DNA from: Candidatus Limnocylindrales bacterium
Lineage (GTDB): Bacteria; Chloroflexota; Limnocylindria; Limnocylindrales; CSP1-4
Assembly: GCA_035688805.1 (NCBI GenBank)
Contig: DASSMQ010000006.1
Coordinates: 15,012 to 79,011 of the forward strand
Direction: 5' to 3'
DNA length: 64,000 bases
Shown here one piece after another: positions 2,464 through 63,789 of this stretch. Positions within the stretch are counted from its first letter, which is position 1. The number at the start of each line of letters is the position of its first letter. The notes below the pieces were generated by a model. That model was given only the letters and a program-made list of their open reading frames with translations, ran no database searches and was not told the DNA's origin. A program made the translations under genes and the position numbers.

Positions 2464-2471
2464 GCCCGGGG

Positions 2472-4421: not shown

Positions 4422-4466
4422 GGTGTGTGTTCGCTCCTCGCTCGGGATGGCTCGTTCGGTCGGTGG

Positions 4467-6108: not shown

Positions 6109-6127
6109 ACTCGTTCTCCGGTGGTAG

Positions 6128-6154
6128 TTAGCACTCGATGGGTGAGAGTGCTAA
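6128..6154. promoter_or_regulatory. CIRCE operator (HrcA binding site) upstream of hrcA
   Basis: TTAGCACTC-gatgggtga-GAGTGCTAA is a perfect 9-N9-9 inverted repeat matching the CIRCE consensus. It sits 20 to 46 nt upstream of the hrcA start. Confidence 0.85.
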
Positions 6155-6221
6155 CGGGTCGGGAGGCATCGTAGCAGTCGCCGGTCGGGAGTGTCAACGC
6201 GTGGTCGGCGTCGCGGAGCTC

Positions 6222-7454: not shown

Positions 7455-7456
7455 CG

Positions 7457-11044: not shown

Positions 11045-11196
11045 CTGCACGTCGCCCTCCTCGAAGTGTCCGGACACCGGCGATTGTAGGGGCGCGTCGG
11101 CTGCATCTCGCCACCATCTGCTACCATCCGTCGTCGCGCCGCCGCCCTCGCGCCGCGCGAACCCGATCAGATCCCACGCACGTGAGGTTCTCCCCC

Positions 11197-11847: not shown

Positions 11848-11889
11848 GTGGACGGGGTCCGGCGACGGGCCCCTCTCGGTACCGTCGAC

Positions 11890-11911
11890 CGCCCCGGCAC
11901 CAGCCGGGGCG
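11890..11911. terminator. bidirectional hairpin between the convergent rpsT and lipoprotein genes
   Basis: cgccccggc-acca-gccggggcg is a 9-bp GC stem with a 4-nt loop. There is no U-tract, which is common in high-GC genomes. Confidence 0.4.
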
Positions 11912-11926
11912 TCGTCATGCCGCCCC

Positions 11927-12729
11927 CTACTGGAAGCACCACCCCCGCGCTTCGAGGGCTTTTCGCTCGAGATCGGACAGGGCGATCACGAACGCCGTCT
12001 GGTCGAATGCCTTGTACAGCTCGAAGCGCCGTCCCGGGCTGGCGATGAGGGCGTCGATCGGGGCGAGGATGCCGGGATCGATCCAATCCTCGAGGTAGGC
12101 CGGGTGGAGCTCGTGGACGCCGTCCGCGAGGCTGAACCTGACCGTGACCGGACCCTTCGACCCAGCCCATGTCTCGGTGATGTCACCCGGATCGAACGCC
12201 CCGCCCGAGATCTCGCTCCAGGCGGCCAGGGTCTGGACGTACACCTCGTTCTCCGGGGCGACGTCCGCCTCGAGGTCCTGCCACCAGACGCGGGCGTGGT
12301 CCTGCTGAGCGACGGCGAGGTCGAGCATGGCGGGCGGGAGCTCGACGGACCCGCTCGGGTCGCTCGCGGCAGTCTGGCCGGACCCATCTCCGGCGCTGCC
12401 CCAGGTCTCGGCGATACCGTCCTTGACGTAGGCCGTCAGGTCGGCCTCCGAGAGCTCGGCCTGATCCGCGAAAAGGCCGATCGCCCGCAGGTCGGCTACG
12501 CGTTGGGCGATCGTGGCGTCGGTCGCCGGCGGCAGCGGGTCGGCGTCGCAGGCCGCGCTGGCGACATTCGTCGGTCGGGGCACGTCGACACGGGTCGAGC
12601 CGAGCCCGGGCACGTCGACGAACTCACCCGAGCCGACGCCGCCCGTCGGCGGAGCCGCACACGCGGCGGCGAGGACGCCGGCGACGAGGCTGGCCGCGAT
12701 CGCCGCGACCGCCGCGCGGAGACGCCCGC

Positions 12730-12733
<4 letters not shown>
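11927..12733 (-). CDS. secreted protein, probable lipoprotein
   Basis: Signal peptide MSGRLRAAVAAIAASLVAGVLAAAC. The start ATG overlaps the upstream gene's stop (ATGA). Confidence 0.55.
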
Positions 12734-17035
<4,302 letters not shown>

Positions 17036-17042
17036 ACATGGG

Positions 17043-17067
17043 AAGGCCCCGCCATCGGCGGGGCCTT
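17043..17067 (-). terminator. hairpin downstream of the small zinc-ribbon gene
   Basis: aaggccccgcc-atc-ggcggggcctt is an 11-bp stem with a 3-nt loop. Confidence 0.4.
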
Positions 17068-17089
17068 CGGTCGCGTCAGAGGACGGGCT

Positions 17090-17230
17090 TCAGCCGCCGA
17101 TCTTGAAGACCTTGTTGCCGCAGATCGGACAGGTGCCCTGCAGGGCGGGCTTGCCGTTCTTCATCGTGATCCGCTGGGCGTTCTGGACTTCCACTTTTCG
17201 CTTGTCCTTGACGCAGTAGGCCTCAGCCAT
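17090..17230 (-). CDS. 46-aa zinc-ribbon protein of a family conserved in Actinobacteria (DUF5679-like; family name from memory)
   Basis: Not in the ORF track because it is under 60 aa. A GGAGGAG RBS sits 6 nt before the ATG. It encodes MAEAYCVKDKRKVEVQNAQRITMKNGKPALQGTCPICGNKVFKIGG with a C..C..CPxCG motif. Confidence 0.7.
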   Translation of the reverse strand: MAEAYCVKDKRKVEVQNAQRITMKNGKPALQGTCPICGNKVFKIGG

Positions 17231-17299
17231 CTGGGCTCCTCCTCGTTCGATCGAGCGTCACGGGAACCTTTGTCCCGCATCCGCTCCTTGGGTGTCGCG

Positions 17300-18166
17300 C
17301 TAGGTGGTCCACAGCGACGGCCGCCAGCGGTCCGTCGCGGCAGTCCGCTTCTGGGCATCGATCGTCGCCAATACGAGCAGGCTCTCGAGACCAGTCGCCA
17401 CGCACGCTGCCTCGGCAGCGTCCTTGGCCGATCCCTCGACGAACTCGCCGGTCGTCCGGTTCGCGTAGACCGCGCAGACGACCCCGGCCCGTGCGCCGGC
17501 GAGCGATGCGAACACCAGCAGTGCCGATGCCTCCATCTCGAAGTTCATGACGCGCTGGCGCGCCATGGTCTCCGCGAGGTCAGGGTAGCGGATGGGCAAC
17601 TGGGGGATCGGGCGTCCCTGCGCACCGAAGAACCCCGGCGCCGTCGCCGTCACCCCGACGTGATACCGGTAGCCGAGCCGCTCCGCCGCCTCGATGAGGG
17701 CCATCGTCGCCTCGAGATCGGCGACCGCGGGATACCCATCGTGGACGTACCAGCTCGTCGTCGTCTCGAGCCGCACCGCTCCGGTCGTGATGACCAGGTC
17801 ACCCAGGGCCATCTCCGGCTGGAGCGCGCCGCACGAGCCGACCCGGATGAAGGTCGGACGATGCGTGATCGCCAGGATCTCGGCCACGGCGATCTCGACG
17901 TTGTCCGTGCCGATGCCGGTCGACACGACCGACACCCGCTGTCCTCGATACGTGCCGGTCGCCGATGCGAACTCCCGGTGTCGGTGCTCGAGCTCGACGG
18001 AATCGAAGCGCGAGGCGATCCGTGTCGTTCGGTCCTGGTCCCCGGGGAGGAGGATGTACTCGGCCAGGTCTCCCGGTCCGAGTCCGATGTGGTACTGCCG
18101 TTCCCCGTCGGGGATCGCTATGCGGCGATCTCGCGGGCTTTCGACGCGGGTATCCGCGTTCGGCAA
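17300..18166 (-). CDS. nucleoside phosphorylase (PNP/UDP family, uridine-phosphorylase-like)
   Basis: 288 aa. The motifs VLLPGDQDR, STGIGTDN and FEMEASAL are typical of PNP_UDP_1 family enzymes. Confidence 0.8.
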   Translation of the reverse strand: MPNADTRVESPRDRRIAIPDGERQYHIGLGPGDLAEYILLPGDQDRTTRIASRFDSVELEHRHREFASATGTYRGQRVSVVSTGIGTDNVEIAVAEILAITHRPTFIRVGSCGALQPEMALGDLVITTGAVRLETTTSWYVHDGYPAVADLEATMALIEAAERLGYRYHVGVTATAPGFFGAQGRPIPQLPIRYPDLAETMARQRVMNFEMEASALLVFASLAGARAGVVCAVYANRTTGEFVEGSAKDAAEAACVATGLESLLVLATIDAQKRTAATDRWRPSLWTT

Positions 18167-18293
18167 GACCTCTCCTCGTGCACGTAGCGTGCTTCGCGGG
18201 CGCGAAACTCGGGCGAGGATAGTCCGCTGATTCTGCGAGCGTCAAGCACGCTCGCGCACGCTTGACGCCCGCACGACGCCTGTTCAGCCGCGC

Positions 18294-21200
18294 TCAGCCC
18301 CCGTTCACCGTCCGGCCAACGCCCTCCGGCGGTCGTGCCCGCCCGCCGATCGACGCCAGGCGGGTCGCGACGCGGGCCGCCACCAGCCGTCGCGCATGGC
18401 GCCGCCGCAGGGTGGCGGCGACCACCGACAAGGCACCGACCCCGGTCAACCCGAGCAGGCTCGCGCCGGCACCCGGCAGGAGTCCCGGGTCCGCCCCGAA
18501 CCCCGCCACCTGCATCTCGGGCGCGGAGCGCTCGCCCGTCGTGCCGATGGCGGCGGTGCCAGCCTCCGGTGAGCTGGCGGGCGTCGGGTTTCCCAGCCCG
18601 TCCAGGCCGCTGCCGAGGACGATCGTCGAGGGGTCGTCGACCACGACGACCGTCTGGCCGTCCTCGTCGCGACGCACTCGGCCGACGACGTTGATGGCGT
18701 CGCGTGGCTCGATCAGCCCGAGCCAGCCGGCGGCCTCCCCGGTCAGGACGATCGACCCGACGGACGTGCCGTCGTCCAGTCGGAAGCCGGTGGGCCGCAG
18801 CTCCACCACCAACCCGCCGACCCGCACGGTCGCGCCGAGAAGCGCCTCCAGGTCGGCCAGGTCGGCATCGGCCACGGTCCGACCGACACCCGGGGCTCCC
18901 GATGACAGGACCGGACCCTCGGTCGAGGTCACGGCGACGCCGCTGTCACCCCCGGAGCGACGATCGCTCGCCCGCGGCACGCTCGTCACGTGCACGTCCG
19001 CCGAGCCCCTCGGCAGCACCGCTGGCCGTCGGTCCGTCGCACTCGGATAGGCCGGGCGGACGATCCCGACGATCTCGGCGGTCCCGCCGGCGCCGAGCAC
19101 CGTGCTGGGAATCGCGGCACCGGGCTGGCCGATCACGACGAGGGACTGCGCGCCGCTGATCACCTCCGCGCGCCAGCGGTCGCCGAGCTTGTGGACCGCA
19201 TCGACCCGGCCCGCGATCGATACGAGGCGCCACGTATGCGCGGCCCCGAGGGCGCCGGCCACGCGGAGTGGCGCCGGGATCGATGCCGAGCCGAGGCGGT
19301 CGAGGCTGGTCGCCCGCAGGCGCGGAGCGCCGTAGGCCGATCCGATCCGGCCGACCGCCCGGATCCTCGACCCGACCCCCGGGGCCGACGCGGTCTTGGG
19401 CACGAGCACTTCGATCGCGCCACTCGGGTCCTGGACGACGATCCGTCGGCCCGTCGAATCGAGCAAGGTGGCCGGCGCGGTCACGACCGCCTCGATCGCG
19501 ACATCGCGATCGGTGACCCGCCGGGCGGCCGCGATGGATAGCACGGTCGGAGTGCCGCCGGTCGTGGTCGATCCATTCGGCTTGGGCTTCGGGGTCGGCG
19601 TCGGGGCGTGACTCGGTGACGGGGTCGGCGTCGGCGCAGGAACCGTGAGCACGACGTCTGCAGGATCCCGGGCCCAGATCCGATAGCCGTCCGGCTGGTC
19701 CTTCTTCGACGCGCGCTGGCCCGCGATGCCGGTGACCCGGTACCGGGCCCATAGGTCGAAGGCCGAGGTCCCCAGCCCGCTCGAAGCGTCGGTCATCACC
19801 CGGACTCGCGTGCCGTCCGAGGTCTCGATCGTGACCGTGATGTCGTTGCTCGTCGACTTCACCGGCCGGACGACCACGAGACCGTCGAAGCGGACGAGCT
19901 TCGCCTCGGACGACTCGTCCGGACCACTCGGGGGAACGACCGCCGGCTCCGGCAGGACGCCAACGCCCTCGACGTGCAGGTCGCTGGCGAGGGGTCGGAT
20001 CTCGGTCTGCCCGTACGGATCGGCGAGCGGACCACGGACCCACACGACCTGGCCACGACTGGGTGCCGGCAGCTCGGCGGGGAGTCGCACGATCAGCGCG
20101 CCGGTCGCATCCTGGACCGGGAACAAGGCAGGCGTCCCCACCCGGCCGGGCTCGGCCGTGACGACGCCACGGATCGCGACGCTCGTGCCGACCGGCATCG
20201 TCCGGGCCGTCCCGATGGCCATCGCTTCGGCGGGCGGCGCCGACGTGGCGGTCGGGGTCGGGATCGGGGTCGGGGTTACGGTCGGGGTCGCGGTCATGTC
20301 GGCAGTCGGCGTGGGCTCGGGCGTCGCGGTAGGGTCCTCGGTCGGCGTGGTAGATGGGGCCGAGGTCGGGGAAGGCGCAGGCGTCGACGTCGGCACGGGG
20401 GTCGAGGTCGGCAGGGCGAGCTGCAGGTCGCCCGGCGCCGTGACATAGAGCCGATAGCCGCCGGTGCCGGTCCCGGAGCTGTCGCGCTGCCCGAGCGGGC
20501 CGACCGCGGTGACCATGGTCCCTTGCGAAACAGGCCTGCCCGCAACGGCCGTCGGCGTGACGACCACCCGGACGGGTCCGGAACCGTCGTCGATCGAGAA
20601 GGCCGTCCCGTCGGCGAGGGCCTCGTCGGCGCCCGTGACCGAACCCTGCGCCTCGAGCCGAGTACCTTCGAGCAGCTCGGTTGCGCCGCCGGTCGTCGTG
20701 CCGAGGGCTGGCGGGACACCAGGGTTGCCATCAACCATCACCGCACCCTGGGTGATGCGCAGCGTTCGCTGGGCATAGCGAGAATCGACCTCGCCGTGCA
20801 CGTGGATGGCAGTACCCGCAGCGATCGGGTCGACCACCACCGCGTCAAGGTAGAGGGCGATCCCACCGGTCGCGTCCTGGACGAAGGCAGTCCGACCGGC
20901 CTCGAGCGCGCCGAGGTCCGTGGTCAGGACGCCTGAGATCGTGACGACGGATCCATCGGGCAAGGCGCGGGCGGCAACGATGGACGTCGTGGGCGGAGGC
21001 GTCGGCGTCGGTGCCGGGGAGACGGTCGGGACTGGCGTGGGCTCCGGCGTGGGCGGCATGGTCGGCTCCGGCGTGGGCGGCACGGTCGGCTCCGGCGTTG
21101 GCGCCGGGGTGGGCGGCACGGTCGGCTCCGGCGTGGGCGGCACGGTCGGCTCCGGCGTCGGCGCCGGGCTGGGCGGCGCGGTCGGCTCGGGCATCGGCGC

Positions 21201-21965
21201 CGGGGTGGGCTCGATCGTCGGCACCGGCGACGCAGTCGGACCGGGGGTGGCCGTCGCCGTCGGACTGGGCGACAGCGTCGGCACGGCGGTCGGCGTGGCC
21301 GTCGGCGTCGGGCTCGGGCTCGCGACGGGGGCAGGGATCGGCGGTGACGCTACATCCTGCGGTCCCGGCGTCGCCGACACGAACCAATCAGCGCCATTGG
21401 CGTTCGTGTCGATGGCGTTGCCGAGGACTCCACCAGGGCGCCGTTCGAGGCTGGATCCCGCGGGTGGCGCGGCAGCCGCCGTCCCCTCGACGAAGGCGTT
21501 GGTCGCATCACCCCAGCCGATCGCGTCGATCACCGAACCACCGACCACGCGCAGCGCGACCGACCCTCCGGTCGCGGCGAAACCGCCCGAGTACGTCGCA
21601 TCGCCGAACCCGACGTAGGAGCCAGCGCCATTGACGATGAGCGTCCGCTGTCCGGGACCAAGGATCGTCGACGTCGACCAGGTCGCCTTGCGCGTGACCG
21701 TCGAGCCGGTCGACGTCGCGTACACGACCTCGAGCCCGACCAGATCGGCAGGACCCGTACCCTGATTGGCGATCTCGACGAACTCGTCCGATGCGCTCGA
21801 GCCGCCGGTCTGGATCTCCGACACGACGAGCGTGGATACCGGCCACGCGGCCGACGCCGCGAGTGCGACGTCCCCCAGCCGTGCGCTGTGTGTGGGTCCG
21901 CTCGACAGGCAGACGGCGACGACGAGGGCGAGCGCGGTGGTCCCCGCGCGCCGGGCGCGTTGCAT
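18294..21965 (-). CDS. large surface-anchored protein with an N-terminal lamin-tail domain (LTD), Pro/Thr-rich linkers and a C-terminal TM anchor
   Basis: 1223 aa with a signal peptide. ISEIQTGGSSASDEFVEIANQGTGPADLVGLEV is the LTD signature. Three PT-rich linkers are present. The C-terminus LLGLTGVGALSVVAATLRRRHARR is a TM segment plus a basic stop-transfer. Confidence 0.8.
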   Translation of the reverse strand: MQRARRAGTTALALVVAVCLSSGPTHSARLGDVALAASAAWPVSTLVVSEIQTGGSSASDEFVEIANQGTGPADLVGLEVVYATSTGSTVTRKATWSTSTILGPGQRTLIVNGAGSYVGFGDATYSGGFAATGGSVALRVVGGSVIDAIGWGDATNAFVEGTAAAAPPAGSSLERRPGGVLGNAIDTNANGADWFVSATPGPQDVASPPIPAPVASPSPTPTATPTAVPTLSPSPTATATPGPTASPVPTIEPTPAPMPEPTAPPSPAPTPEPTVPPTPEPTVPPTPAPTPEPTVPPTPEPTMPPTPEPTPVPTVSPAPTPTPPPTTSIVAARALPDGSVVTISGVLTTDLGALEAGRTAFVQDATGGIALYLDAVVVDPIAAGTAIHVHGEVDSRYAQRTLRITQGAVMVDGNPGVPPALGTTTGGATELLEGTRLEAQGSVTGADEALADGTAFSIDDGSGPVRVVVTPTAVAGRPVSQGTMVTAVGPLGQRDSSGTGTGGYRLYVTAPGDLQLALPTSTPVPTSTPAPSPTSAPSTTPTEDPTATPEPTPTADMTATPTVTPTPIPTPTATSAPPAEAMAIGTARTMPVGTSVAIRGVVTAEPGRVGTPALFPVQDATGALIVRLPAELPAPSRGQVVWVRGPLADPYGQTEIRPLASDLHVEGVGVLPEPAVVPPSGPDESSEAKLVRFDGLVVVRPVKSTSNDITVTIETSDGTRVRVMTDASSGLGTSAFDLWARYRVTGIAGQRASKKDQPDGYRIWARDPADVVLTVPAPTPTPSPSHAPTPTPKPKPNGSTTTGGTPTVLSIAAARRVTDRDVAIEAVVTAPATLLDSTGRRIVVQDPSGAIEVLVPKTASAPGVGSRIRAVGRIGSAYGAPRLRATSLDRLGSASIPAPLRVAGALGAAHTWRLVSIAGRVDAVHKLGDRWRAEVISGAQSLVVIGQPGAAIPSTVLGAGGTAEIVGIVRPAYPSATDRRPAVLPRGSADVHVTSVPRASDRRSGGDSGVAVTSTEGPVLSSGAPGVGRTVADADLADLEALLGATVRVGGLVVELRPTGFRLDDGTSVGSIVLTGEAAGWLGLIEPRDAINVVGRVRRDEDGQTVVVVDDPSTIVLGSGLDGLGNPTPASSPEAGTAAIGTTGERSAPEMQVAGFGADPGLLPGAGASLLGLTGVGALSVVAATLRRRHARRLVAARVATRLASIGGRARPPEGVGRTVNGG
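21040..21200. repeat. tandem 24-bp repeats encoding (PTPEPTVP)n in the LTD protein linker
   Basis: ggctccggcgtgggcggcacggtc repeats about six times. The same repeat appears in the antisense ORFs as VGSGVGGTVGSGVG. Confidence 0.7.
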
Positions 21966-55474: not shown

Positions 55475-55900
55475 ATGCGAACCAACCTGACGATCGACGA
55501 TCTCGGTGGACTCCTCGATCAACCACTCATCGCGGTCCTGGCCACCCGGCGACAGGACGACACGGTCATGCTCTCGCCGGTCTGGTTCGAGTGGTTCGAG
55601 GGTGGGATCAACATCTGGGTCCCGACGATCGAGGGTGGCAAGGTCGCCCACGTCCGACGCGACCCGCGGGTGACCGTCGTCGTGGCCAACCAGGCCTGGC
55701 CATACAAGGGCTTCGAGCTGCGCGGCGAGGCCACGGTCTCGACGGACCCCGATGCCTTCTACGGGACGCTGGGCCGCACGGGCTTGCGCTACAGCGGTCC
55801 CGAGGCCGCCGAGCGGATGGTCCGCGAGTACGCACCCGGCGCCGTCATCCGACTCGAGCCGGGGACGATCCGGGCGTGGGACTACGAAGACGAGGCCTGA
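55475..55900 (+). CDS. pyridoxamine 5'-phosphate oxidase family protein (PPOX class, probably F420/FMN-binding split barrel)
   Basis: An AGGAG RBS sits 9 nt before the ATG. It has the split-barrel motifs ...IAVLATRRQDDTVMLSPVWFEW... Confidence 0.7.
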   Translation: MRTNLTIDDLGGLLDQPLIAVLATRRQDDTVMLSPVWFEWFEGGINIWVPTIEGGKVAHVRRDPRVTVVVANQAWPYKGFELRGEATVSTDPDAFYGTLGRTGLRYSGPEAAERMVREYAPGAVIRLEPGTIRAWDYEDEA

Positions 55901-55980
55901 ACAACGGCGCGCTCCACGACATGTCGTGACCGCTCGAATGAGCGCTTGCCACCCACATGCGCAACGACTAGGGTCATCGG

Positions 55981-56964
55981 GTGGCTCCCGTCCAGCGTCC
56001 GGTCCTCGCACTCCAGGTCGCGCGGCTCTTCTTCGACCGGCGGATGACGCGCATCGAGATCGCCGCCCAGCTCGGGATCTCGCGCTTCCGCGTCGCTCGA
56101 CTGCTCGACGGCGCCCTCGCTGACGGTCTCGTCCGCGTCGAGTACCGCGATCTGCCGATCGAGGACCGCGACGTCGCCAGACGGCTCGAGGACCGGTTCG
56201 GACTCGGCCTGTGCGCGGTAGCGGCCGACGGTCCGAGCCCGACCGCCGGCGCGGTCGCGGAACTCGCGGGCTCGCTGCTCGATGGGCTCATCGGCCAGGA
56301 CGAGACCGTCGGTATCGCGTGGGGCTCGACGCTGGCGGCCGTGGTCGCCGCGGTGCCACCGCGCCACGATCCGTCGATCCGGGTGGTCCAGCTCGCCGGG
56401 TCCTCCAGCCGGCTGGTCGGAGGGCGCGATGCCGGGGAACTGACTCGGGCCCTGGCCGCGCGACTCGGTGCTGCTCACCATGCGATCTACGCCCCGGCCG
56501 TGGTCGACTCCGCCATCGTCCGCGAGGCACTCGTCCGGGCGCCCGAGGTCGCCGACGCGGTGGGTCGGTTCGACGACATCAGCCTGGCGGTCGTCGGCAT
56601 CGGGGTGATCCCCGCGGACGGGGTCACACCCGCGTCATCGCTGATTCGATCCGGAGCGCTCGATGCGGCGGACATCCGACGGATGGTCGACCTCGGCGCG
56701 GTCGGCGAGCTCGTGGTCCATCCGTTCGATCTCGACGGCCGATTCGTCGACGCGGCGCTGGCGGCTCGCGCGATCGCCATCGACATCGATCGGCTGCGAG
56801 CGATCGGCCGCGTCGTCGCGGTCGCATGGGGAGTCGACAAGGCGACGGCCATCCGGGGTGCCCTGCGGTCGGGCGTCGTGGACATGCTGGTGACGGACGC
56901 TCGGACCGCCGCGGCCGTCCTCGAGGTCGATGATCAGCTCCGCTCGGCGACCCTCGATGGCTGA
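55981..56964 (+). CDS. SorC/DeoR-family sugar-binding transcriptional regulator
   Basis: It has an N-terminal HTH (MTRIEIAAQLGISRFRVARLL) and a SorC sugar-binding domain (VGIAWGSTL...). Confidence 0.8.
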   Translation: MAPVQRPVLALQVARLFFDRRMTRIEIAAQLGISRFRVARLLDGALADGLVRVEYRDLPIEDRDVARRLEDRFGLGLCAVAADGPSPTAGAVAELAGSLLDGLIGQDETVGIAWGSTLAAVVAAVPPRHDPSIRVVQLAGSSSRLVGGRDAGELTRALAARLGAAHHAIYAPAVVDSAIVREALVRAPEVADAVGRFDDISLAVVGIGVIPADGVTPASSLIRSGALDAADIRRMVDLGAVGELVVHPFDLDGRFVDAALAARAIAIDIDRLRAIGRVVAVAWGVDKATAIRGALRSGVVDMLVTDARTAAAVLEVDDQLRSATLDG

Positions 56965-57757
56965 CCGACTCCGGGGACGGACGCTGCTCGTGACCGGCTC
57001 CACGGGCATCGCGGCCGCGACCGCCGTGCGCGCGGCGACCGAGGGCGCCCGAGTGTTCGTGATCTCGCGCGCAGCAGATCACGCAGCAGCGCTCGCCGAC
57101 CGTGTCGCAGGTGGGTGGGCCGCGGCCGATCTGACCGATGAGTCGGCCGTCGATGCCGCGGTTCGCGCTGCCATGGATCATCTCGGCCGGATCGACGCCG
57201 CCTTTTCGGCGGCCGGCGGGAGCGGCCGTCGATTCGGCGACGGTCCGATCCACGAGCTCACAGCTGCGGCGTGGGAGGCAACGGCCGGCTTGAACCTCCG
57301 AACCCAGGTCCTCGTCTGCGGCCGGGTCATCCGCGCGATGCGCGAGCAAGCGCTCGACGCGGACGGCGGTCGCGGATCCCTCCTGCTCCTCGGTAGCGTG
57401 ACGGCGACCGCACCCGTGCCCGAGTGGTTCGGGACCCACGCCTATGCGACCGCCAAGGGGGCACTGACCGCCCTGATGACCTCGCTCGCAGCGACCTACA
57501 TCGCGGACCGGATCCGGGTGAACCTCCTCGTGCCCTCGCTGACCGCGACGCCGATGGCGGCGCGAGCCGCTGCCGACGCGCGGATCCTCGCCTATGCCGC
57601 CCGCAAGCAGCCGCTGGCGGGGCCGATGCTCGACCCCGACGAGGTGGCCAAGGCGGCGCTCTTCTTCCTGTCCGACGAGTCGCGGGCCGTCACCGGCCAG
57701 TCGCTGGCCGTCGATGGTGGCTGGTCCATCGTGTCGACCGGCGCGGAGCTGACGTGA
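56957..57757 (+). CDS. SDR-family oxidoreductase
   Basis: It has the TGSTGIAAATA Rossmann motif and the catalytic YATAK. The ATG overlaps the regulator's stop. Confidence 0.85.
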   Translation: MADRLRGRTLLVTGSTGIAAATAVRAATEGARVFVISRAADHAAALADRVAGGWAAADLTDESAVDAAVRAAMDHLGRIDAAFSAAGGSGRRFGDGPIHELTAAAWEATAGLNLRTQVLVCGRVIRAMREQALDADGGRGSLLLLGSVTATAPVPEWFGTHAYATAKGALTALMTSLAATYIADRIRVNLLVPSLTATPMAARAAADARILAYAARKQPLAGPMLDPDEVAKAALFFLSDESRAVTGQSLAVDGGWSIVSTGAELT

Positions 57758-59103
57758 CCAGCGATCGATGGCCGCTCATCGCCGATGTCGACGTGGGCAT
57801 CGTGGGCGGTGGCTCGGCGGGGTCCACTGCCGCGATCGCTGCGGCCCGGCAGGGCGCGTCGGTCCTGCTTATCGATCGACTGCCCTTCCTGGGCGGCACG
57901 AGCACGGCGGTCCTCGACACGTTCTACGGCTTCGTCACCCCCGGTGAGCGGCCGCGCAAGGTGGTCGGCGGCGTGGCCGACGAGATCGTCGCCGGCCTGC
58001 GCCGACTCGGGCCGGTCGTCGAGCGACCCAACACGTACGGCGCGGGGACCGGGATCACCTATCTACCGGATCACCTGAAGGTGGTGTGGGAGGACGCGGT
58101 GGCCGGTTCCGGATCCCGGGTCCTGCTGCATGCGATGCTCCAGGAGGCGGACGTCGCCGACGGCCGGGTCCGGTCGGTCCTGGTCGCGACCCGCGGCGGC
58201 CTCGTGCGGATCCGCGCGCGGGTGTTCATCGATGCGTCCGGCGACGCCGACCTATGCGCCGCCGCCAACCTTGGCTACGAGATCGCCGGCGCCGTCGAGC
58301 CCGCCCAGACGCTGACGACCACGTTCCGGATGACCAACGTGGACCTCGAACGGCGACGAACAGTGTCGAAGGCCGATCTCCATGCGCGCATGGCCGACGC
58401 TGCGGCAAGCGGCGACTACGACCTGCCGCGGCGGGATGGCAGCGACCACGTCACGCCGATCGACGGCGTCATGGCGACGGTCATGACTCGCCTCGCGTCG
58501 ACGCGCGCGGGGCTCGACGGGCACTTGGTCGACGTCACCGATCCATGGTTCCTGACCGAGGTGGAGATGGCGGGACGCCGCCAGGTGCTCGACTATGTCC
58601 GCTTCCTGCGCGATCGCGTCCCGGGCTATGAGGACGCCTCGCTGGTCGGGGTCGGAACCCAGATCGGGGTGCGCGAGACACGGCGGGTCTTCGGGGATGC
58701 GCGCCTCACGGGCGACGACGTCCTCGCTGCCCGCCAGTTCGACGATCAGATCGGCCTGTGCGGCGCCCCGATCGAGGACCACCATCCCGGCAGTGACACG
58801 GCCTGGCGCTACCTGCCCGAGGGCCGGGCCGTGGGGATCCCGTATCGAGCGTTGGTCGTGCGCGACGCGGCGAACGTCCTCGTCGCGGGCCGCTGCTTCA
58901 GCGCGACCCACGAGGCGCATGCCGCGGTCCGCTCGATGGCCCAGTGCATGGCGATGGGCCAGGCGGCCGGGACGGCCGCCGCGATCGCGGTCGGCGATGG
59001 CGTCGACCCGCGCGAGATCGACGCGACCGCGCTGCGCGACGCGCTTCGGCGCGATGGCGCCGTCGTCGACCTCGATCGGGCGCCGGCATGGGTGGCGGCA
59101 TGA
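57754..59103 (+). CDS. FAD-dependent oxidoreductase (FAD_oxidored/PF12831-like)
   Basis: The GTG start overlaps the SDR TGA (GTGA). It has the dinucleotide motif VGIVGGGSAGSTAAIAAARQG. Confidence 0.8.
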   Translation: MTSDRWPLIADVDVGIVGGGSAGSTAAIAAARQGASVLLIDRLPFLGGTSTAVLDTFYGFVTPGERPRKVVGGVADEIVAGLRRLGPVVERPNTYGAGTGITYLPDHLKVVWEDAVAGSGSRVLLHAMLQEADVADGRVRSVLVATRGGLVRIRARVFIDASGDADLCAAANLGYEIAGAVEPAQTLTTTFRMTNVDLERRRTVSKADLHARMADAAASGDYDLPRRDGSDHVTPIDGVMATVMTRLASTRAGLDGHLVDVTDPWFLTEVEMAGRRQVLDYVRFLRDRVPGYEDASLVGVGTQIGVRETRRVFGDARLTGDDVLAARQFDDQIGLCGAPIEDHHPGSDTAWRYLPEGRAVGIPYRALVVRDAANVLVAGRCFSATHEAHAAVRSMAQCMAMGQAAGTAAAIAVGDGVDPREIDATALRDALRRDGAVVDLDRAPAWVAA

Positions 59104-60083
59104 CGGCCGCGCGGTTCGTTCGAACCGTGCTCGGCGATATCGACCCGGTCGAGCTCGGGGTGACGTACGCCCACGAGCACCTGGTCATCGACGGCGGCCG
59201 CCCCGTTCTGATGGAACCCGACTTCGATCTCGCCGACGTCGACGCGATGGTCGCCGAGGTCGGCGCGGCCGTCGATCTCGGGCTGGGCGCGGTCGTCGAC
59301 GCGATGCCCTGCGATGCCGGTCGCAATGCCGCCAAGCTCGCGGAGATCTCGCGGCGCACCGGCGTGCAGGTCATCGCATCGACGGGATTGCACCACGAGC
59401 GCTACTACGGACCCGCCCATTGGTCGCATCGGATCGACGTCGAGGAGCTGGCCGACTTGTTCGTGGCCGACATCGAGATGGGCATCGACGCCAACGACTA
59501 CTCGGGTCCCGTCGTCCACCGGATGGCCCACCGCGCCGGCGTCATCAAGGTGGCCGGATCCGCGGGCGGCCTGTCCGACCGGGACCGACCGGTCTTCGAG
59601 GCGGCGGCGGCGGCACATCACCGCACGGGCGCCCCGATCCTGACCCACTGCGAGGGTGGGACCGGCGCCCTCGAGCAGGTGGCCTACCTGCTCGACCGGG
59701 GAGTCGAACCGGATGGCCTCGCCCTGAGCCACGTCGACAAGGTCCTTGACCGCGGCTATCACCGCGACCTGCTGGCCACCGGCGCGACGGCCGAGTACGA
59801 CGGCAGCTTCCGCTGGGGCGACGCACCGAACGGGACGCTCCAGTTGCTCGAGTGGATGACCGAGGACGGCCTCTCGGATCGGATCGTCCTCGGCATGGAC
59901 GCCGCGCGACGGGGCTACTACGCGGTGTACGGTGGGACACCGGGCCTGCGCTGGCTGCTCGACGGCTTCTCGTCGGCGATGGATGCGCGCGGCCTCGGAC
60001 CAGAGCTGCGGCACCGCTGGTTCGTCGAGGTCCCGGCCCGCGTCTTCTCGTTCGGCGCTGTCGATGGAGGGCCTACTGCATGA
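59100..60083 (+). CDS. phosphotriesterase-family (PTE/PHP-like) metal-dependent hydrolase; possible lactonase
   Basis: The ATG overlaps the upstream TGA (ATGA). It has the HEHL metal-binding start and a (beta/alpha)8 amidohydrolase-superfamily PTE signature. Confidence 0.82.
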   Translation: MTAARFVRTVLGDIDPVELGVTYAHEHLVIDGGRPVLMEPDFDLADVDAMVAEVGAAVDLGLGAVVDAMPCDAGRNAAKLAEISRRTGVQVIASTGLHHERYYGPAHWSHRIDVEELADLFVADIEMGIDANDYSGPVVHRMAHRAGVIKVAGSAGGLSDRDRPVFEAAAAAHHRTGAPILTHCEGGTGALEQVAYLLDRGVEPDGLALSHVDKVLDRGYHRDLLATGATAEYDGSFRWGDAPNGTLQLLEWMTEDGLSDRIVLGMDAARRGYYAVYGGTPGLRWLLDGFSSAMDARGLGPELRHRWFVEVPARVFSFGAVDGGPTA

Positions 60084-61135
60084 CCGATGGGCTGCGCACC
60101 AGCGTCGTCGGATCGCACGCCCGACCGTCCTGGTTCGTCGCCGGGATCGCCGCCGCGGAACGCGGGGAATTCGGGCCGGCCGACCTCGCCGAGATGCTCG
60201 ACGACGGGGTGGACCTCGCGATCCGCGACCAGGAGGATGCGGGTATCGACCTGGTCAGCGACGGGGAGATGCGCCGTGCCGGATTCTTCACCGCCGAGTT
60301 CTACCTGCGGATCAGCGGCGTCCGGGCCCTGCCAGCGGACCGCCGACTCGGCGCCGGTGGCCACGACCAGCAGCATCGGTTCGAGGTCCTCGAGCCGATC
60401 GCCGCGCCCGACGGCCTCGGCGTGGTCGCCGAGTACCGCTACGCCGCGACTCGCGCGCATCGGCCGCTGAAGGTGACCATCCCCGGTCCGTACACGCTTT
60501 CTGGTCGGTTGCGCACCGGTCCCGGCGAGGTCTACCGCGACCGGGAGGCCGCCGCCGAGGCATTCGTGCCGATCCTGCGGGACGAGCTCCAGGCGCTGGT
60601 CGCTGCGGGCGCGCAGCACATCCAGATCGATGACCCGTCGCCGGCGATCCACCCGGATGCCCCGTCGGATGTGGCCGGGTTGTTCAACGCCGCCGTCGAG
60701 CCCGTGGTCGGTCGGGTCAGGCTGGGGGCGCACCTGTGCTTCGGCAACTACCTCGGACGGCCACTCGCACGGCGCACCTACCGGCCCGTGATGCGGGCCA
60801 TGCTCGAATTCCGCGTCGACGAGCTCGTCCTGGAGTTCGCCAATCGGGAGATGGCCGAGGTCGAGCTGCTCGGGGAGATCGCCTCGGCCGGGCGCGACGT
60901 CGCCGCGGGGATCGTCGATGTCAAGAACTACCACCTCGAGACGCCCGACGAGGTCGCCGAGCGTGCGGACGCGGTCCTCGCCGCGGGCGTTCCGGCTGAG
61001 CGGCTCAGCCTCGTCCCAGACTGTGGGTTCAGCCAGACGGCTCGCTGGGCGACCGTCGCCAAGCTTCGCGCACTCGTCGCCGGCCGCGACCTGGTCGCCG
61101 GTCGCGTCGGTCGACAGGAGGGATCGCATGGATAG
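60080..61135 (+). CDS. cobalamin-independent methionine synthase (MetE C-terminal domain / UroD-like) family protein
   Basis: ATGA overlap with the upstream stop. It is 351 aa, of similar size to the MetE catalytic domain and with a similar charged/hydrophobic pattern. Confidence 0.7.
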
Positions 61136-62327
61136 CCACCGCATCTCGCTACTCGGCACCGGGCTGATCGGTGACTTCTACACCTCGACGCTGCACGGCC
61201 AGCGCGGTCGCGACCGGGTCGAGGTCGTGTATTCGCGCAGCGACGCCCGAACGGCGGCGTTCAAGAAGCGCTGGGATATCCCGGTCGCCACGACCGACAT
61301 CGACGCGGCCATCGAGCATCCCGACACCGACGTCGTGGTGGTCGCCTTGCCCAACTTCCTGCACGTCGACGCGGTCGAGCGGGTCGCCCGCGCGGGGAAG
61401 GCCGTCCTGTGCACCAAGCCACTCGGTCGGACCGCCGACGAGGCGCGCCGGATGCTCGAGGCGGTCGAGTCGGCCGGCGTGTTCGGCGGCTACCTCGAGG
61501 ACCTGGTCTACACGCCAAAGACGCTCAAGGCGGCCGCCGCTGTGGCCGGGGGTGCCGTCGGCGAGGTGACGTGGGTCCGCTCGCGCGAGGCCCATCCGGG
61601 CCCGCACTCGGCCTGGTTCTGGGATGGCCGTCTGACCGGTGGCGGCGCGATCATCGACCTGGGCTGTCATTGCATCGAGATCATCCGGACCTTCGTCGGC
61701 AAGGGCGATCGGCCGGTCGACGTGATGTGCCACACCGACACCCTGGTCCACCCGATCAGCGACGAGGACAACGCCGTCGCGCTCATCCGATTCGAATCGG
61801 GCGCTGTCGGCCAGTTCGAGGTCAGCTGGACGTTCCGGGGCGGCATGGACCTACGCGACGAGGTCGCCGGCACCCACGGCACGATCTGGTTGAACCATTT
61901 CCTGCGGACCGGCTTCGAGATGTTCACGGCCGGCGGCGCCGGGGGCTACGTGGCCGAGAAGGCGGAGACCGAAGCGGGCTGGCTGTTCCCCGTCGGCGAC
62001 GAGACCGCCGAGCTCGGCTACGTCGACATGTTCAGCGACATGTTCCGCGCGATGGAGACGGGCAACGACCCCCGTGAGACCTTCTACGACGGCTACGTCG
62101 TGAACGCGGTCATGGATGCCTGCTACCGGTCGGCGGCGAGCGGCAACTGGGCCCCGGTCGACCTCGAGTGGCGCGGCGGCACGACCGCGCGCATCGCGTC
62201 GACACCGGAACGGTACGAGGGCCAGGTCGTCATCAAGCGCGAGATGCTGCCCGACGGCCGGCACAAGCTGATCCTCAAGGACGAGGCGACCGGCGACTTC
62301 AGCGATCGCGTGGTGGCGGCAGGCTGA
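61128..62327 (+). CDS. Gfo/Idh/MocA-family oxidoreductase
   Basis: The ATG overlaps the upstream stop (ATGGATAG). It has an N-terminal Rossmann motif ([13 protein letters not shown]) and a C-terminal GFO_IDH_MocA_C domain. Confidence 0.85.
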
Positions 62328-62343
62328 CGGCCCGCCGCCCGCG

Positions 62344-63639
62344 TCAGCCGGTCGGGGCGAGCCGCAGCGCCGGTGCCGCGGCCGGGTGACCGGCCTCGAG
62401 CCAGCGGCCGATCGACTCGCGCGCGAACAGCTGGTCAACGACCATCGCCGACGCGCCGATGACGCCGGCGAGGCCGCCGAGCGACGAGTGGGCGATGCGC
62501 AGGTCCCGCGTCGCCAGAGGCAACGATCGGCGCTCGACCGTCTGGCGGATCGCGGCGATGAACGACTCCGGGCTATTCGCGACGCCGCCGCCGATCACGA
62601 TCAGCGACGGGTTGAAGAAGTTCACGACGCTCGCCAGCATCGACCCGACCCGGCGGCCGGCCGTGTCGAGCATGGCCGCCGCCACGGGGTCGCCGAAGGA
62701 TGCGGCTCGCGCGACGTCCTCGGCCGTGACCTGGCCGGTCCGGTCGAGGGCCCCGGCCAGACGCACGCTGCGACCCTCCCGGGCGGCGAGTTCGCCCGCT
62801 CGCCCCAGAGCGCCACCACCGGCATATGCCTCGAGGCACCCGACGTTCCCACACCGGCAGACGACCGAGGGGTCGTCCGAGACGCCGATATGGCCGACGT
62901 CCCCGGCACTGCCCTGGGCGCCGCGATGGAGGCGACCGTCGGAGATGATCCCGGCCCCGATCCCGGTCCCGACCTTGATGACGACCACGTTGTCGTGGCC
63001 CGACGCGACCCCGGATCGCCATTCCCCGAGGGCCAGCAGGTTGACGTCGTTGTCGACCCAGACCGGCGCCGCGTAGCGCTCTTCGAAGCGCTCCCGGATC
63101 GGGTAGCCGTCCCAGCCGGGCATGATCGGCGGGGAGATCGGTCGACCGGACCCGAACTCGACGGGACCTGGGACACCCACACCGACCCCCCACAGCCGAC
63201 CCGGCACGTCCTTGGCGGTCGCCAGGAGCAGCGCGAACAGGGCGTCGACGCGATCAAGGCACGCCTCGGGGCCGTCCTCGATGCGGGCCGGCTCGTCATG
63301 ATGGCCGAGGATCCGGCCGTCGAGCGTGGTCAGGGCGACGTCGATGCTGGTCGCACCGAGATCGGCGACGAGCACGTGCCCGGCCGTCGCCTTGAACGCC
63401 AGCTGGCGGGGCGGGCGTCCGCCGGTGCTGGGCCCGACGGGGCCTTCGCTGATCAGGCCCCGGTCGAGCAACTCGCCGACCCGACGCGCGACGATCGCGC
63501 GACCGAGCCCCGTCCGCTCGACGAGCTCCGAGCGCGACCGAGACCGCCCCAGGCGGATCTCATCCAGGACCGTGACCAAGTCGTCGAGCACTTCGTCCGG
63601 TAGCGCCGGCGCGGTAGGCGTCGGCAGGTCCTCGTCCAC
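62344..63639 (-). CDS. ROK-family transcriptional regulator (N-terminal wHTH plus ROK sugar-kinase-like domain)
   Basis: The HTH reads ELVERTGLGRAIVARRVGELLDRGLI. The ROK zinc motif is CRCGNVGCLE. The start is placed at the GTG (VDEDLP); ORF 62344..63690. Confidence 0.8.
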   Translation of the reverse strand: MDEDLPTPTAPALPDEVLDDLVTVLDEIRLGRSRSRSELVERTGLGRAIVARRVGELLDRGLISEGPVGPSTGGRPPRQLAFKATAGHVLVADLGATSIDVALTTLDGRILGHHDEPARIEDGPEACLDRVDALFALLLATAKDVPGRLWGVGVGVPGPVEFGSGRPISPPIMPGWDGYPIRERFEERYAAPVWVDNDVNLLALGEWRSGVASGHDNVVVIKVGTGIGAGIISDGRLHRGAQGSAGDVGHIGVSDDPSVVCRCGNVGCLEAYAGGGALGRAGELAAREGRSVRLAGALDRTGQVTAEDVARAASFGDPVAAAMLDTAGRRVGSMLASVVNFFNPSLIVIGGGVANSPESFIAAIRQTVERRSLPLATRDLRIAHSSLGGLAGVIGASAMVVDQLFARESIGRWLEAGHPAAAPALRLAPTG

Positions 63640-63764
63640 GCCGCGATGATACCCACCGACCCTTGTCACGACCACTTTTGCACTTGACACGTCAAAGTAC
63701 GATCGCTCTAGCAGCGAGGATCGTGCGGCGCGCGCAACACGAGGCGCCGCATCGGGTCGCGCAG

Positions 63765-63789
63765 ACCATCTAGACTGTCTAGACCATCA
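63765..63789. promoter_or_regulatory. operator-like direct repeats (GACCATC ... TCTAGAC x2) in the ROK / Gfo-Idh-MocA intergenic region
   Basis: gaccaTCTAGActgTCTAGAccatc contains two XbaI-type palindromic cores and flanking GACCATC direct repeats. It lies about 40 nt upstream of the downstream gene's RBS. Confidence 0.3.

Follow-up and report, generated by a model that had tools for sequence, protein, structure and literature searches.

What would a protein of the methionine synthase fold do in an operon of sugar dehydrogenases and a lactonase? The question is raised by a 64,000-nucleotide stretch of contig DASSMQ010000006.1 from a Candidatus Limnocylindrales bacterium (hereafter the window, which has a GC content of about 71%). 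In this genome, which is Limnocylindrales-like and belongs to the Chloroflexota, six plus-strand genes of the window are translationally coupled in a single operon. They encode a SorC-type regulator, a short-chain dehydrogenase/reductase (SDR), a flavoprotein of family PF12831, a hydrolase of the phosphotriesterase (PTE) family, a MetE-like protein and a Gfo/Idh/MocA-type dehydrogenase, Gfo1. We propose that a phosphorylated sugar, possibly an amino sugar, is degraded through the operon by an Entner-Doudoroff-like route in which the MetE-like protein takes the missing elimination step, and we put the probability of this reading at roughly 40%.

The SorC gene occupies positions 55981–56964 (327 aa, GTG start) and is followed by the genes for the SDR (56957–57757, 266 aa), the flavoprotein (57754–59103, 449 aa, with a GTG start that overlaps the SDR stop), the PTE hydrolase (59100–60083, 327 aa), the MetE-like protein (60080–61135, 351 aa) and Gfo1 (61128–62327, 399 aa). 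All five junctions overlap by 4 or 8 nt. The two longer overlaps are ATGGCTGA at 56957–56964, between SorC and SDR, and ATGGATAG at 61128–61135, between the MetE-like gene and Gfo1. The shorter ones are GTGA at 57754–57757 (SDR/flavoprotein) and ATGA at both 59100–59103 (flavoprotein/PTE) and 60080–60083 (PTE/MetE-like). With the convergent ROK gene that follows, all seven reading frames (55981–63690) are backed by a third-position GC content of 0.85–0.95 and by a codon-usage gene caller. The start sites match the N-termini of orthologues in the related locus L002, for example VTRLGGRVVLITG versus MADRLRGRTLLVTG; alternative upstream starts exist for the SDR (56930) and for the PTE hydrolase (59088).

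An original prediction, made from the letters of this DNA, had named the gene families, the overlapping junctions, the translational coupling and the convergent ROK gene, and all of these are borne out by the coordinates, the exact junction strings and Pfam. The profile searches that it called for have been run on each enzyme. Pfam matches for all seven proteins lie well over the gathering score, which upholds the families, and none of the seven reaches an NCBIfam equivalog cutoff. Therefore no protein of the set is a recognised orthologue of a characterised enzyme. The failure to match the combination to any named pathway also stands, as no description was found in a literature search that covered this gene combination, PF12831, PF01717 variants and LuxS-independent routes.

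Conservation of the cluster

A scan of one genome per GTDB species, with a 7-sequence alignment as the query, returned 80 loci at 62–91% identity; genes were called with a codon model and clustered, and neighbours were counted over 75 loci. Nearly all loci come from Chloroflexota-type metagenome-assembled genomes (MAGs) of Chloroflexia, Limnocylindrales, Thermomicrobiales and Anaerolineae, and one (L053) lies on a contig labelled Verrucomicrobiia. The sources label MetE-like homologues as Candidatus Limnocylindrales, a Chloroflexota group known from MAGs. Directly upstream of the MetE-like gene there is a PTE gene in 51 of the 75 loci and an SDR gene in 12, and the 4-nt overlap between PTE and MetE-like genes recurs in 42 of the 51. 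Gfo1 follows directly in 45 loci, with an overlap in 18 of them; overlaps that recur so often exceed chance. Within six genes of the MetE-like gene are found PTE (52 loci), Gfo1 (51), SDR (50), AP_endonuc_2 (31), Gfo2 (30), ROK (29), the flavoprotein (21), Eda (19), DeoC (18) and SorC (13). The conserved core is SDR-PTE-MetE-like-Gfo, not the six genes; the test of co-conservation posed by the original prediction thus comes out in favour of this core and against the six-gene unit. SorC and the flavoprotein are accessory, because they occur in 13/75 and 21/75 loci. When present, SorC always stands directly upstream of the SDR gene, and the flavoprotein gene, which is also found in the ocean locus L158, always stands between an SDR or SIS_2 gene and the PTE gene. 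It should be mentioned that five loci from long-read MAGs (L007, L028, L035, L034 and L036) show no callable PTE gene between SDR and MetE-like genes, or a fused over-long reading frame. Assembly frameshifts are likely in them, and the co-occurrence counts are therefore lower bounds.

The cluster takes several forms around this core. Relatives at 94–96% identity have the window-type version, including the flavoprotein. Those at 89–91% show the order PNPOx, Eda-type aldolase, SDR, PTE, MetE-like and Gfo1, then a 246-aa reading frame with no Pfam hit on record, and the ROK gene on the opposite strand. The fullest form, Eda-SorC-SDR-FAD-PTE-MetE-like-Gfo1, is seen in L048, L052, L057, L061 and L063. 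The Eda-type aldolase gene is absent from the window, which either lost it or never had it. In a second arrangement (type B) the ROK gene is co-directional and precedes [FAD-]PTE-MetE-like, with the Gfo2-AP_endonuc_2-ABC operon divergent, so that ROK stays beside the PTE-MetE-like pair in two different gene arrangements. The same families are shuffled in the divergent lineages of L058, L075, L079, L083 and L085, where GntR/UTRA regulators and FGGY, PfkB or ROK kinases are added. A clade at 64–68% identity keeps only a PfkB kinase, the SDR and the MetE-like protein, and a NagB/Pgl-like gene follows Gfo1 in 4 loci. A set of LacI, ABC transporter, GH3, GH51 and CE7 genes abuts the cluster in L012, L015, L021, L023, L026, L036 and L066 (at about 11000–20000) and also in L010, L031, L057 and L060. 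Read by eye, this set would serve xylo- or arabino-oligosaccharide utilisation; Gfo1 is sometimes moved to its far end.

The MetE-like family is small, with 159 representative clusters at E≤1e-30 among 1.84 billion. A metagenome scan seeded with P0128, a relative at 40–47% identity, returned 80 loci, and neighbours were counted in 71 of them, many being short. Most of the longer loci share the order SDR, ROK kinase (about 300 aa, no helix-turn-helix), SIS_2, MetE-like, metallo-β-lactamase (MBL)-fold hydrolase, as exemplified by L124, L127, L129, L131, L134, L138, L144, L148, L152, L154 and L160. MBL neighbours the MetE-like gene in 26 of the 71 loci, SIS_2 in 25, the ROK kinase in 17 and SDR in 14. 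The SDR that opens this widespread cassette is 35–48% identical to that of the window. The SIS_2 protein belongs to PRK02947 (240 bits), a family met again in the ROK-side operon described below, and the MBL protein weakly matches the L-ascorbate-6-phosphate lactonase UlaG. In L138 and L152 an Eda-type aldolase gene follows MBL, and the L138 copy passes TIGR01182 (213 versus 156 bits). The two designs are merged on the ocean contig L158 (SDR, ROK kinase, SIS_2, FAD, PTE, MetE-like, MBL). Homologues of Gfo1 at 58–73% identity adjoin MetE-like genes in L111, L133, L142, L158 and L164; in L133 and L142 a Gfo1 that is 70–73% identical to that of the window, PTE, AP_endonuc_2 and Gfo2 surround the MetE-like gene. 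A lactone-type hydrolase of either unrelated fold, PTE or MBL, thus stands constantly beside the MetE-like protein. Pyruvate-type aldolases for 2-keto-3-deoxy acids, likewise of two unrelated folds, are also found near it, Eda/DgoA-type in 29 loci and HpcH/HpaI in L086 and L096. The cassette loci span 38–67% GC and come from marine, freshwater, soil and sludge bacteria, and this GC span means that the module is widely distributed. In Bacteroidota-like loci the flanks, read by eye from the sequences, resemble aromatic-amino-acid and cell-wall genes.

At 40–47% identity the contexts of MetE-like relatives are mixed, and no generalisation beyond cassette-linked members is therefore made. In L099 an overlapping operon at 1455–8011 encodes the alpha and beta subunits of a class-I fumarase/mesaconase, a methylaspartate-ammonia-lyase homologue, a metallophosphoesterase, a CE4 deacetylase, an MBL protein and, last, the MetE-like protein. 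The marine clade of L099 also includes L095, L096, L098 and L102, with an HpcH/HpaI lyase gene after the MetE-like gene in L096; the context is of an amino-dicarboxylate type, yet the MBL-MetE-like pair is kept. In L091 (5728–9050) a MetE-like gene at 45% identity directly follows that of a FAD_binding_3 flavin monooxygenase with a divergent LysR gene, an arrangement reminiscent of the need of MesD for a redox partner. Sulfoquinovose was considered as a substrate and set aside, since TauE genes are seen only in L086 and no sulfoquinovosidase is present.

No member of the cluster is better conserved than the MetE-like protein, which equals Gfo1 in this respect and exceeds the SDR and PTE proteins. 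This conservation, the housekeeping neighbourhood of the cluster and the non-sugar contexts of some relatives at 40–47% identity could together describe a housekeeping core methionine synthase that resides in a sugar operon by chance and has no functional link to it. Such an account is very improbable considering that at least five gene orders in Chloroflexota keep the linkage to lactonase, SDR and sugar-phosphate genes, as do unrelated lineages with the other lactonase fold, where stop and start codons usually overlap. Nor was a methionine-type riboswitch found. At Rfam gathering scores the window yields two tRNAs only and 7 related loci yield nothing, and methionine-linked control is therefore without support from a SAM, B12 or other riboswitch. 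The MetE-like protein is functionally tied to its neighbours: many gene orders and several phyla show the linkage, in most cases with a stop codon that overlaps the next start.

The MetE-like active site

The MetE-like protein matches PF01717 (Meth_synt_2) with 90 bits over residues 7–333, and Meth_synt_1 below threshold only. It is a single Meth_synt_2 barrel without the folate domain, as judged from its 351 residues and an AlphaFold2 (AF2) model. All NCBIfam methionine synthase models score under their cutoffs, the best being PRK04326 with 179 bits against 406. The AF2 model has a pLDDT of 90 and finds its best fold match in 3RPD, the structure of MesD (26% identity, TM-score 0.80), with uroporphyrinogen decarboxylases as the next matches. 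The sources annotate its relatives as 'cobalamin-independent methionine synthase II family protein' or '5-methyltetrahydropteroyltriglutamate--homocysteine methyltransferase', and thousands of proteins with those names are probably mis-named, the folate-binding domain being absent.

Core methionine synthases are defined by the zinc ligands HCEC, which are H641, C643, E665 and C726 in E. coli MetE, and by the homocysteine ligands S/E/D, which are S433, E484 and D599 in E. coli and S22, E73 and D188 in 3RPD (PMC7857596). Once a 3-residue tag offset in the 3RPD numbering is allowed for, S12, E63, D184, H218, C220, E252 and C315 of the MetE-like protein align with the residues that bind selenomethionine and zinc in 3RPD. 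The acidic pair that matches E63 and D184 binds the alpha-amino group in MetE and MesD (PMC7857596). The zinc ligands H218, C220, E252 and C315 are invariant in the 16 representatives of the family alignment A2 and in 66 metagenome homologues. S12, E63 and D184 are invariant in the same 66 homologues, and in A2 E63 is invariant with S12 and D184 nearly so. R66, R88, R232, R256, K282, R322, K328 and W18 are likewise invariant in the 66. At the positions of R256, K282 and R322 MesD carries Ser, Ala and His; these three residues of the MetE-like protein would fit an anionic substrate. Of the features by which MesA–MesD are recognised, the barrel, the zinc site and the homocysteine ligands are present, and the sequence family and the methyl partner are lacking. 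No MesX (DUF1852) or corrinoid Fe-S protein was seen in the Pfam-annotated loci or among the annotated conserved neighbour families.

The straightforward use of such a site would be the genuine transfer of a methyl or alkyl group to the sulfur of homocysteine. The protein would then represent a fifth family of folate-independent 'core' methionine synthases, with a donor that the dehydrogenases and the lactonase would make from a sugar derivative. All four zinc and three homocysteine ligands that define MetE and MesA–D are invariant (PMC7857596), and the best fold match is MesD bound to selenomethionine. MesD too relies on unidentified redox-linked partner genes for its methyl group, and the tight, persistent linkage to oxidoreductases would suit the generation of a donor. 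However, a catabolic flux would demand stoichiometric homocysteine, no SAM or B12 riboswitch was found in the window and 7 related loci, and neither MesX/DUF1852 nor a corrinoid protein was seen nearby. The identity to MesD is only 26%, the curated methionine synthase models are all under cutoff, and the additional, invariant Arg/Lys residues speak for a small phosphorylated molecule as co-substrate. An O-methyl ether is also a chemically poor methyl donor for a zinc thiolate unless it is activated. We hold a transferase of this kind, which the intact thiol-type zinc site makes the main rival of the route proposed here, to be unlikely, and doubtful too in the narrower form in which a small phosphorylated sugar-acid derivative would be the donor for a folate- and cobalamin-independent fifth family of homocysteine alkyl- or methyltransferases.

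The inositol or methyl-sugar substrate of the original prediction, with the MetE-like protein as a demethylase, is a special case of such a transferase. No evidence for it was found, and the gene contexts (ROK, PfkB and FGGY kinases, SIS_2, Eda and DeoC) point to phosphorylated sugars instead. Demethylation of methyl-inositol, rhizopine or 4-O-methyl-glucuronate was set aside, since supporting genes were not found in the loci and the methyl-transfer chemistry is poor. It is noted that the sole hint in the direction of methyl-sugars is that type-B loci adjoin xylo-oligosaccharide genes.

Lactonase, dehydrogenases and the proposed route

The PTE hydrolase matches PF02126 with 141 bits. Its best curated family is that of the phospho-furanose lactonases (NF045706), at 179 bits well under the equivalog cutoff of 630. 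Its best solved relatives, 3msr/3ovg (1e-48) and 3pnz (1.6e-40), are the phospho-sugar lactonases of Mycoplasma and Listeria, with organophosphate hydrolases and quorum-quenching lactonases well behind at about 1e-28. The PTE family assigned in the original prediction is thus retained and its lactonase type is revised, the nearest relatives being phospho-furanose lactonases rather than the quorum-quenching PTE-like ones. The motifs HEH, GVIKVAG, THCE, SHVD and GMDAA align to 3msr and 3pnz and supply the HxH, Lys, His, His and Asp residues established as the binuclear-metal ligands of PTE, with the Lys bridging. The phosphate ligands of the Mycoplasma enzyme MS53_0025 are reportedly K217, K244, Y245, R275 and Y278 (Korczynska 2014), a pattern that fits 3msr at an offset of +2. 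Against this set, K214, R270 and Y273 are kept in the window protein and K244/Y245 are replaced by G240/D241. Among 52 orthologues K214, R238, W239, R270 and Y273 are invariant or nearly so, and position 241 is D or E in 41. From the three kept phosphate ligands and these pocket residues we infer an anionic, most likely phosphorylated, lactone as substrate, and we propose that the PTE protein may be a lactonase for an anionic, probably phosphorylated, sugar lactone. Homocysteine thiolactone was set aside as a substrate, as the invariant K/R/R/Y pocket inherited from phospho-lactonases speaks for an anionic one.

The SDR matches adh_short_C2 with 155 bits and has the YxxxK and Ser motifs in its translation. 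Its best NCBIfam model is a glucose 1-dehydrogenase subfamily (131 bits, cutoff 215), and we propose that it could act as a sugar or sugar-phosphate C1 dehydrogenase that makes the lactone. The flavoprotein matches FAD_oxidored (PF12831) with 363 bits over its full length. A sequence search gave no solved relative beyond the dinucleotide-binding N-terminus, and its AF2 model (pLDDT 71) matches only generic two-domain flavoproteins at a TM-score of about 0.45. Gfo1, an NAD(P)-dependent sugar dehydrogenase, contains three Gfo domains (GFO_IDH_MocA) that score 69–101 bits. Its best NCBIfam models, inositol 2-dehydrogenase (119 bits) and levoglucosan dehydrogenase (108 bits), are both far under cutoff, and its best solved relatives are 6nor, 6jw6 and 6a3f; an exact-sequence lookup of Gfo1 returned no identical record.

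Sugar enzymes beside an amino-acid site could also be reconciled by a sugar-amino-acid conjugate as the substrate, for instance a glycated amino acid, S-ribosyl-homocysteine or a 5-thio-pentose thioether related to it. Oxidation and opening of the sugar part would fall to the SDR and the PTE protein, and the MetE-like protein would hold and release the amino-acid part, possibly through a 3-keto-driven beta-elimination comparable to SAH hydrolase and LuxS. This would explain why an intact amino-acid site occurs together with sugar enzymes, and the D or E at PTE position 241 could bind an amine. The nearest characterised PTE relatives reportedly hydrolyse 5-substituted pentono-1,4-lactones, and levoglucosan dehydrogenase, which acts at C3, is among the best solved relatives of Gfo1 and Gfo2. 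The cluster is near-universal in the order and lies among housekeeping genes (Rho, Obg, NadD and RsfS), and Amadori (frl) operons likewise draw on the families SIS, PfkB, AP_endonuc_2 and GntR-UTRA, which counts for a conjugate. The fate of S-pentosyl compounds has been noted as unexplored (PMC6302742). However, the proposal is inferential throughout and has no precedent in a known MetE-fold lyase. The cations of the PTE pocket are near the place of a C5-O-phosphate and not at the end of a long homocysteinyl chain, and the kinases and SIS_2 of the widespread cassette favour ordinary sugar phosphates. We regard a conjugate as improbable.

The MetE-like protein could also be a metal-dependent beta-keto-acid decarboxylase or another C-C/C-O lyase that works immediately behind the lactonase, mirroring L-ascorbate-6-phosphate catabolism by UlaG (lactonase), UlaD (decarboxylase) and UlaE (AP_endonuc_2 epimerase). 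In favour are a lactonase neighbour that resembles UlaG or the phospho-furanose lactonases, the conservation of an AP_endonuc_2 gene in the adjoining operon, and the clan that the MetE fold shares with the cofactor-free uroporphyrinogen decarboxylases, which are the next fold matches. A decarboxylase nevertheless leaves the retention of the Cys2-His-Glu zinc site and of the amino-acid triad unexplained, and the recurrent Eda and HpcH aldolases suit a 2-keto-3-deoxy product better than a decarboxylated ketose. We regard this role as quite unlikely.

In the Entner-Doudoroff-like route that we prefer as the simplest scheme, a kinase would form the sugar phosphate, the SDR would oxidise it at C1 to a phospho-lactone, and the PTE protein, or MBL in other lineages, would open the lactone to a phospho-aldonate, which for an amino sugar would be a 2-amino-2-deoxy-aldonate. 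An aldonate is an alpha-hydroxy acid, and glucosaminate-6-phosphate, a 2-amino-2-deoxy-aldonate, is a true alpha-amino acid. The 'homocysteine' site of the MetE-like protein would hold the alpha-carboxylate and the alpha-OH or alpha-NH3+ of the acid, the gamma-oxygen would sit on the zinc, and the phosphate tail would reach the family-specific Arg/Lys cluster; in both acids O4 would take the place of the homocysteine sulfur. The protein could then perform the elimination-type step of a dehydratase (Edd) or an ammonia-lyase (DgaE), giving a 2-keto-3-deoxy-phospho acid to be split by an Eda-type aldolase. The kinases, SIS_2 and the SorC or GntR-UTRA regulators point to phosphorylated intermediates. 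A tblastn search (E≤1e-4) with E. coli Edd, DgoD and UxuA as queries gave no match in 2.2 Mb that comprised the window and about 165 MetE-like loci. Several hints of an amino sugar can be named: the acidic pair E63/D184, the NagC-like ROK protein and GntR/UTRA regulators, the NagB/Pgl-like gene of 4 loci, the CE4 deacetylase and ammonia-lyase homologue of the L099 clade, and the PLP-dependent route from glucosaminate-6-phosphate to KDPG that is already known (PMC9529869).

Several observations weigh against this route. The seven zinc and homocysteine-site residues are all kept, and the simplest reading of them would be a homocysteine-using enzyme. No MetE-fold enzyme is known to carry out an elimination on a sugar acid, and the characterised zinc-containing members of the fold are all known to alkylate a thiol. 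The window operon has neither a kinase nor Eda, and Eda is near the MetE-like gene in only 19/75 relatives and a few cassette loci. SIS_2, Gfo1 and the flavoprotein have no step in the scheme. Conservation of the PTE pocket is incomplete, with G240 and D241 in place of two of the five Mycoplasma phosphate ligands. The dehydratase search consisted of three E. coli queries and would miss other families of dehydratases, for example altronate/GarD-type and DHDPS-like ones, and no amino-sugar deacetylase is present in the Limnocylindrales loci. Finally, some of the more distant family members occur in non-sugar contexts, after RNase G in L089, with a flavin monooxygenase in L091 and with methylaspartate ammonia-lyase and fumarase in L099.

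Regulation, flanking genes and known pathways

Two regulators accompany the enzymes, and both SorC and ROK would sense pathway intermediates. SorC matches PF04198 (Sugar-bind) with 187 bits. Its best curated match is the Bacillus-type DeoR (NF053881, 145 bits over residues 9–314, cutoff 420), followed by LsrR with 82 bits. AI-2 (Lsr) was set aside as a substrate, as LsrR is only the second-best match and the aldolase of the ROK-side operon is a true DeoC and not LsrF. A perfect 14-bp palindrome, CACGACATGTCGTG at 55915–55928, lies 53 nt upstream of the SorC start within the 80-nt gap between the PNPOx-like gene and SorC, and could serve the operon as an operator or as an element of its promoter region; the exact sequence was not found in the related loci. 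A scan for sigma-70 and terminator consensus sequences found no intrinsic terminator and is uninformative in 71% GC DNA. The 16-nt gap between the convergent Gfo1 and ROK stops is spanned by a GC-rich inverted repeat, GGCGGCAGGC / GCCCGCCGCC, at 62315–62339, which is possibly a bidirectional terminator hairpin without a T-run.

The ROK repressor gene is on the minus strand at 62344–63675/63690 (about 431–448 aa), its start being ambiguous between 63639, 63669, 63675 and 63690. The protein probably has an N-terminal DNA-binding region and scores 203 bits with the ROK family of Pfam; NagC (169 bits) and Mlc (149 bits) match over residues 52–423, both under cutoff. Between this gene and that of a second Gfo/Idh/MocA protein, Gfo2, lies the operator-like element AGACCATCTAGAC-T-GTCTAGACCATC at 63763–63789. 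It contains the perfect 7+1+7 palindrome TCTAGAC-T-GTCTAGA at 63769–63783, itself inside an 18-nt-spaced direct repeat, AGACCATC. The palindrome ATCTAGAC-N-GTCTAGAC (CTAGAC-N-GTCTAG) is kept in at least 11 related loci (L004, L007, L011, L016, L017, L020, L024, L028, L033, L035 and L046) and is directly upstream of a called Gfo2 gene in 7. It is likely the operator of the ROK repressor. A further Gfo/Idh/MocA gene behind an operator-like repeat had been foreseen in the original prediction, and is indeed found: Gfo2 runs on the plus strand from a TTG start at 63825, preceded by GGAGGAGG, to position 64000 and past the window end, with an N-terminus 90% identical to that of Gfo2 in L002.

The ROK-side operon can be followed in L001–L003, where it encodes Gfo2, AP_endonuc_2 (a xylose-isomerase-like TIM barrel), DeoC, SIS_2, a Peripla_BP_4 binding protein and ABC transporter components. 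Gfo2 scores best with levoglucosan dehydrogenase (176 bits, under cutoff). With 231 bits against 117, DeoC exceeds the equivalog cutoff of TIGR00126, and SIS_2, with 250 bits against 135, exceeds that of PRK02947. The linked transporter that the original prediction suggested looking for therefore exists as the Peripla_BP_4 ABC system of the ROK-controlled operon, which extends from 63825 onward past the window. The six-gene operon travels with this ROK-repressed uptake and processing operon.

The genes upstream of the six-gene operon are of a housekeeping kind and encode Obg, an M23/LysM peptidase, Rho and a small F420/PNPOx-like protein. The last, an F420-dependent PPOX-class oxidoreductase at 55475–55900 (TIGR03618, 77.2 bits, cutoff 79), keeps its place on the left of the cluster in about 10 relatives; a 205-aa reading frame from 55283 is probably an over-call of it, because its orthologues have 141 aa. 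Elsewhere in the window, a glycolytic gap-pgk-eno row on the minus strand (13317–18166) is preceded by a uridine-phosphorylase-like PNP_UDP_1 gene (213 bits, cutoff 280). A 1223-aa protein with lamin-tail and OB-fold (BOF, tRNA_anti-codon-like) domains is encoded at 18297–21965 on the minus strand and adjoins DNA polymerase III alpha. Among the profiled genes of the window, from which several at about 29–38 kb are missing, no metH, metE, ahcY, luxS or pfs was seen.

The operon is best filed as a variant of dehydrogenase-lactonase-aldolase sugar catabolism that matches no described pathway we found. With the Entner-Doudoroff pathway (Zwf, Pgl, Edd, Eda) it would share the logic of C1 oxidation of a sugar phosphate, lactone hydrolysis and Eda-type cleavage, with Eda/DgoA recurring in the clusters. 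It differs in having an SDR in place of Zwf and PTE or MBL in place of Pgl, in the lack of Eda and of a kinase in the window, and in clusters that carry a MetE-like zinc barrel and a SIS_2 protein. The end logic is also that of D-glucosaminate catabolism in Salmonella, where the PLP-dependent ammonia-lyase DgaE yields KDPG for the aldolase DgaF. Unlike in either pathway, there is no Edd/IlvD homologue, and no PLP-type lyase was seen in the Pfam-annotated loci or the conserved neighbour families. The phospho-furanose lactonases MS53_0025 of Mycoplasma synoviae (3msr/3ovg) and Lmo2620 of Listeria (3pnz) have the same metal ligands and counterparts of K214, R270 and Y273, but K244 and Y245 of MS53_0025 give way to G and D, the curated score is 179 versus 630 bits and the partner gene of the window enzyme is MetE-like. 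As with UlaE in the Ula pathway, which employs such lactonases or UlaG, an AP_endonuc_2 gene is found nearby; PTS, UlaD and UlaF are not present.

MesD/MesX (PMC7857596; 3RPD) shares the single Meth_synt_2 barrel of about 350 aa and the identical HCEC and S/E/D ligands, and a seemingly comparable dependence on unidentified redox-type neighbour genes. In contrast to MesD, the window protein is 26% identical, has no MesX (DUF1852) beside it, carries the extra invariant R256, K282 and R322, and belongs to a family whose neighbours are sugar dehydrogenases, lactonases, kinases and aldolases. Gfo2 followed by AP_endonuc_2 resembles the levoglucosan and 3-keto-glycoside pathways, in which a Gfo/Idh/MocA 3-dehydrogenase works with a xylose-isomerase-like lyase, and the DeoR match of SorC together with DeoC over its equivalog cutoff resembles the Bacillus dra/deo system. 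Unlike in those systems, all matches except DeoC and SIS_2 are under cutoff, and the cluster has no deo-type nucleoside phosphorylase or transporter. The levoglucosan- and deo-like genes for Gfo2, AP_endonuc_2 and DeoC lie outside the six-gene operon, in the ROK-controlled one beside it.

At the centre of this dehydrogenase-lactonase-aldolase type of pathway, the usual dehydratase step is without a recognisable enzyme, and a zinc protein of the methionine synthase fold with an intact 'homocysteine' pocket is always present instead. The PTE-MetE-like pairing is kept across a soil order that is abundant and uncultured, and bacteria of widely differing GC content from marine, freshwater, soil and sludge habitats carry a sister cassette. 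If the MetE-like protein is a homocysteine transferase, a sugar-catabolic cassette would feed a one-carbon or alkyl unit straight into methionine and would provide a concrete case of the 'unknown methyl donor' problem left by MesD/MesX. If it performs the elimination that we propose, the MetE fold would have been recruited to non-thiol chemistry on phospho-sugar acids, as a cofactor-light substitute for the Fe-S enzyme Edd or the PLP enzyme DgaE.

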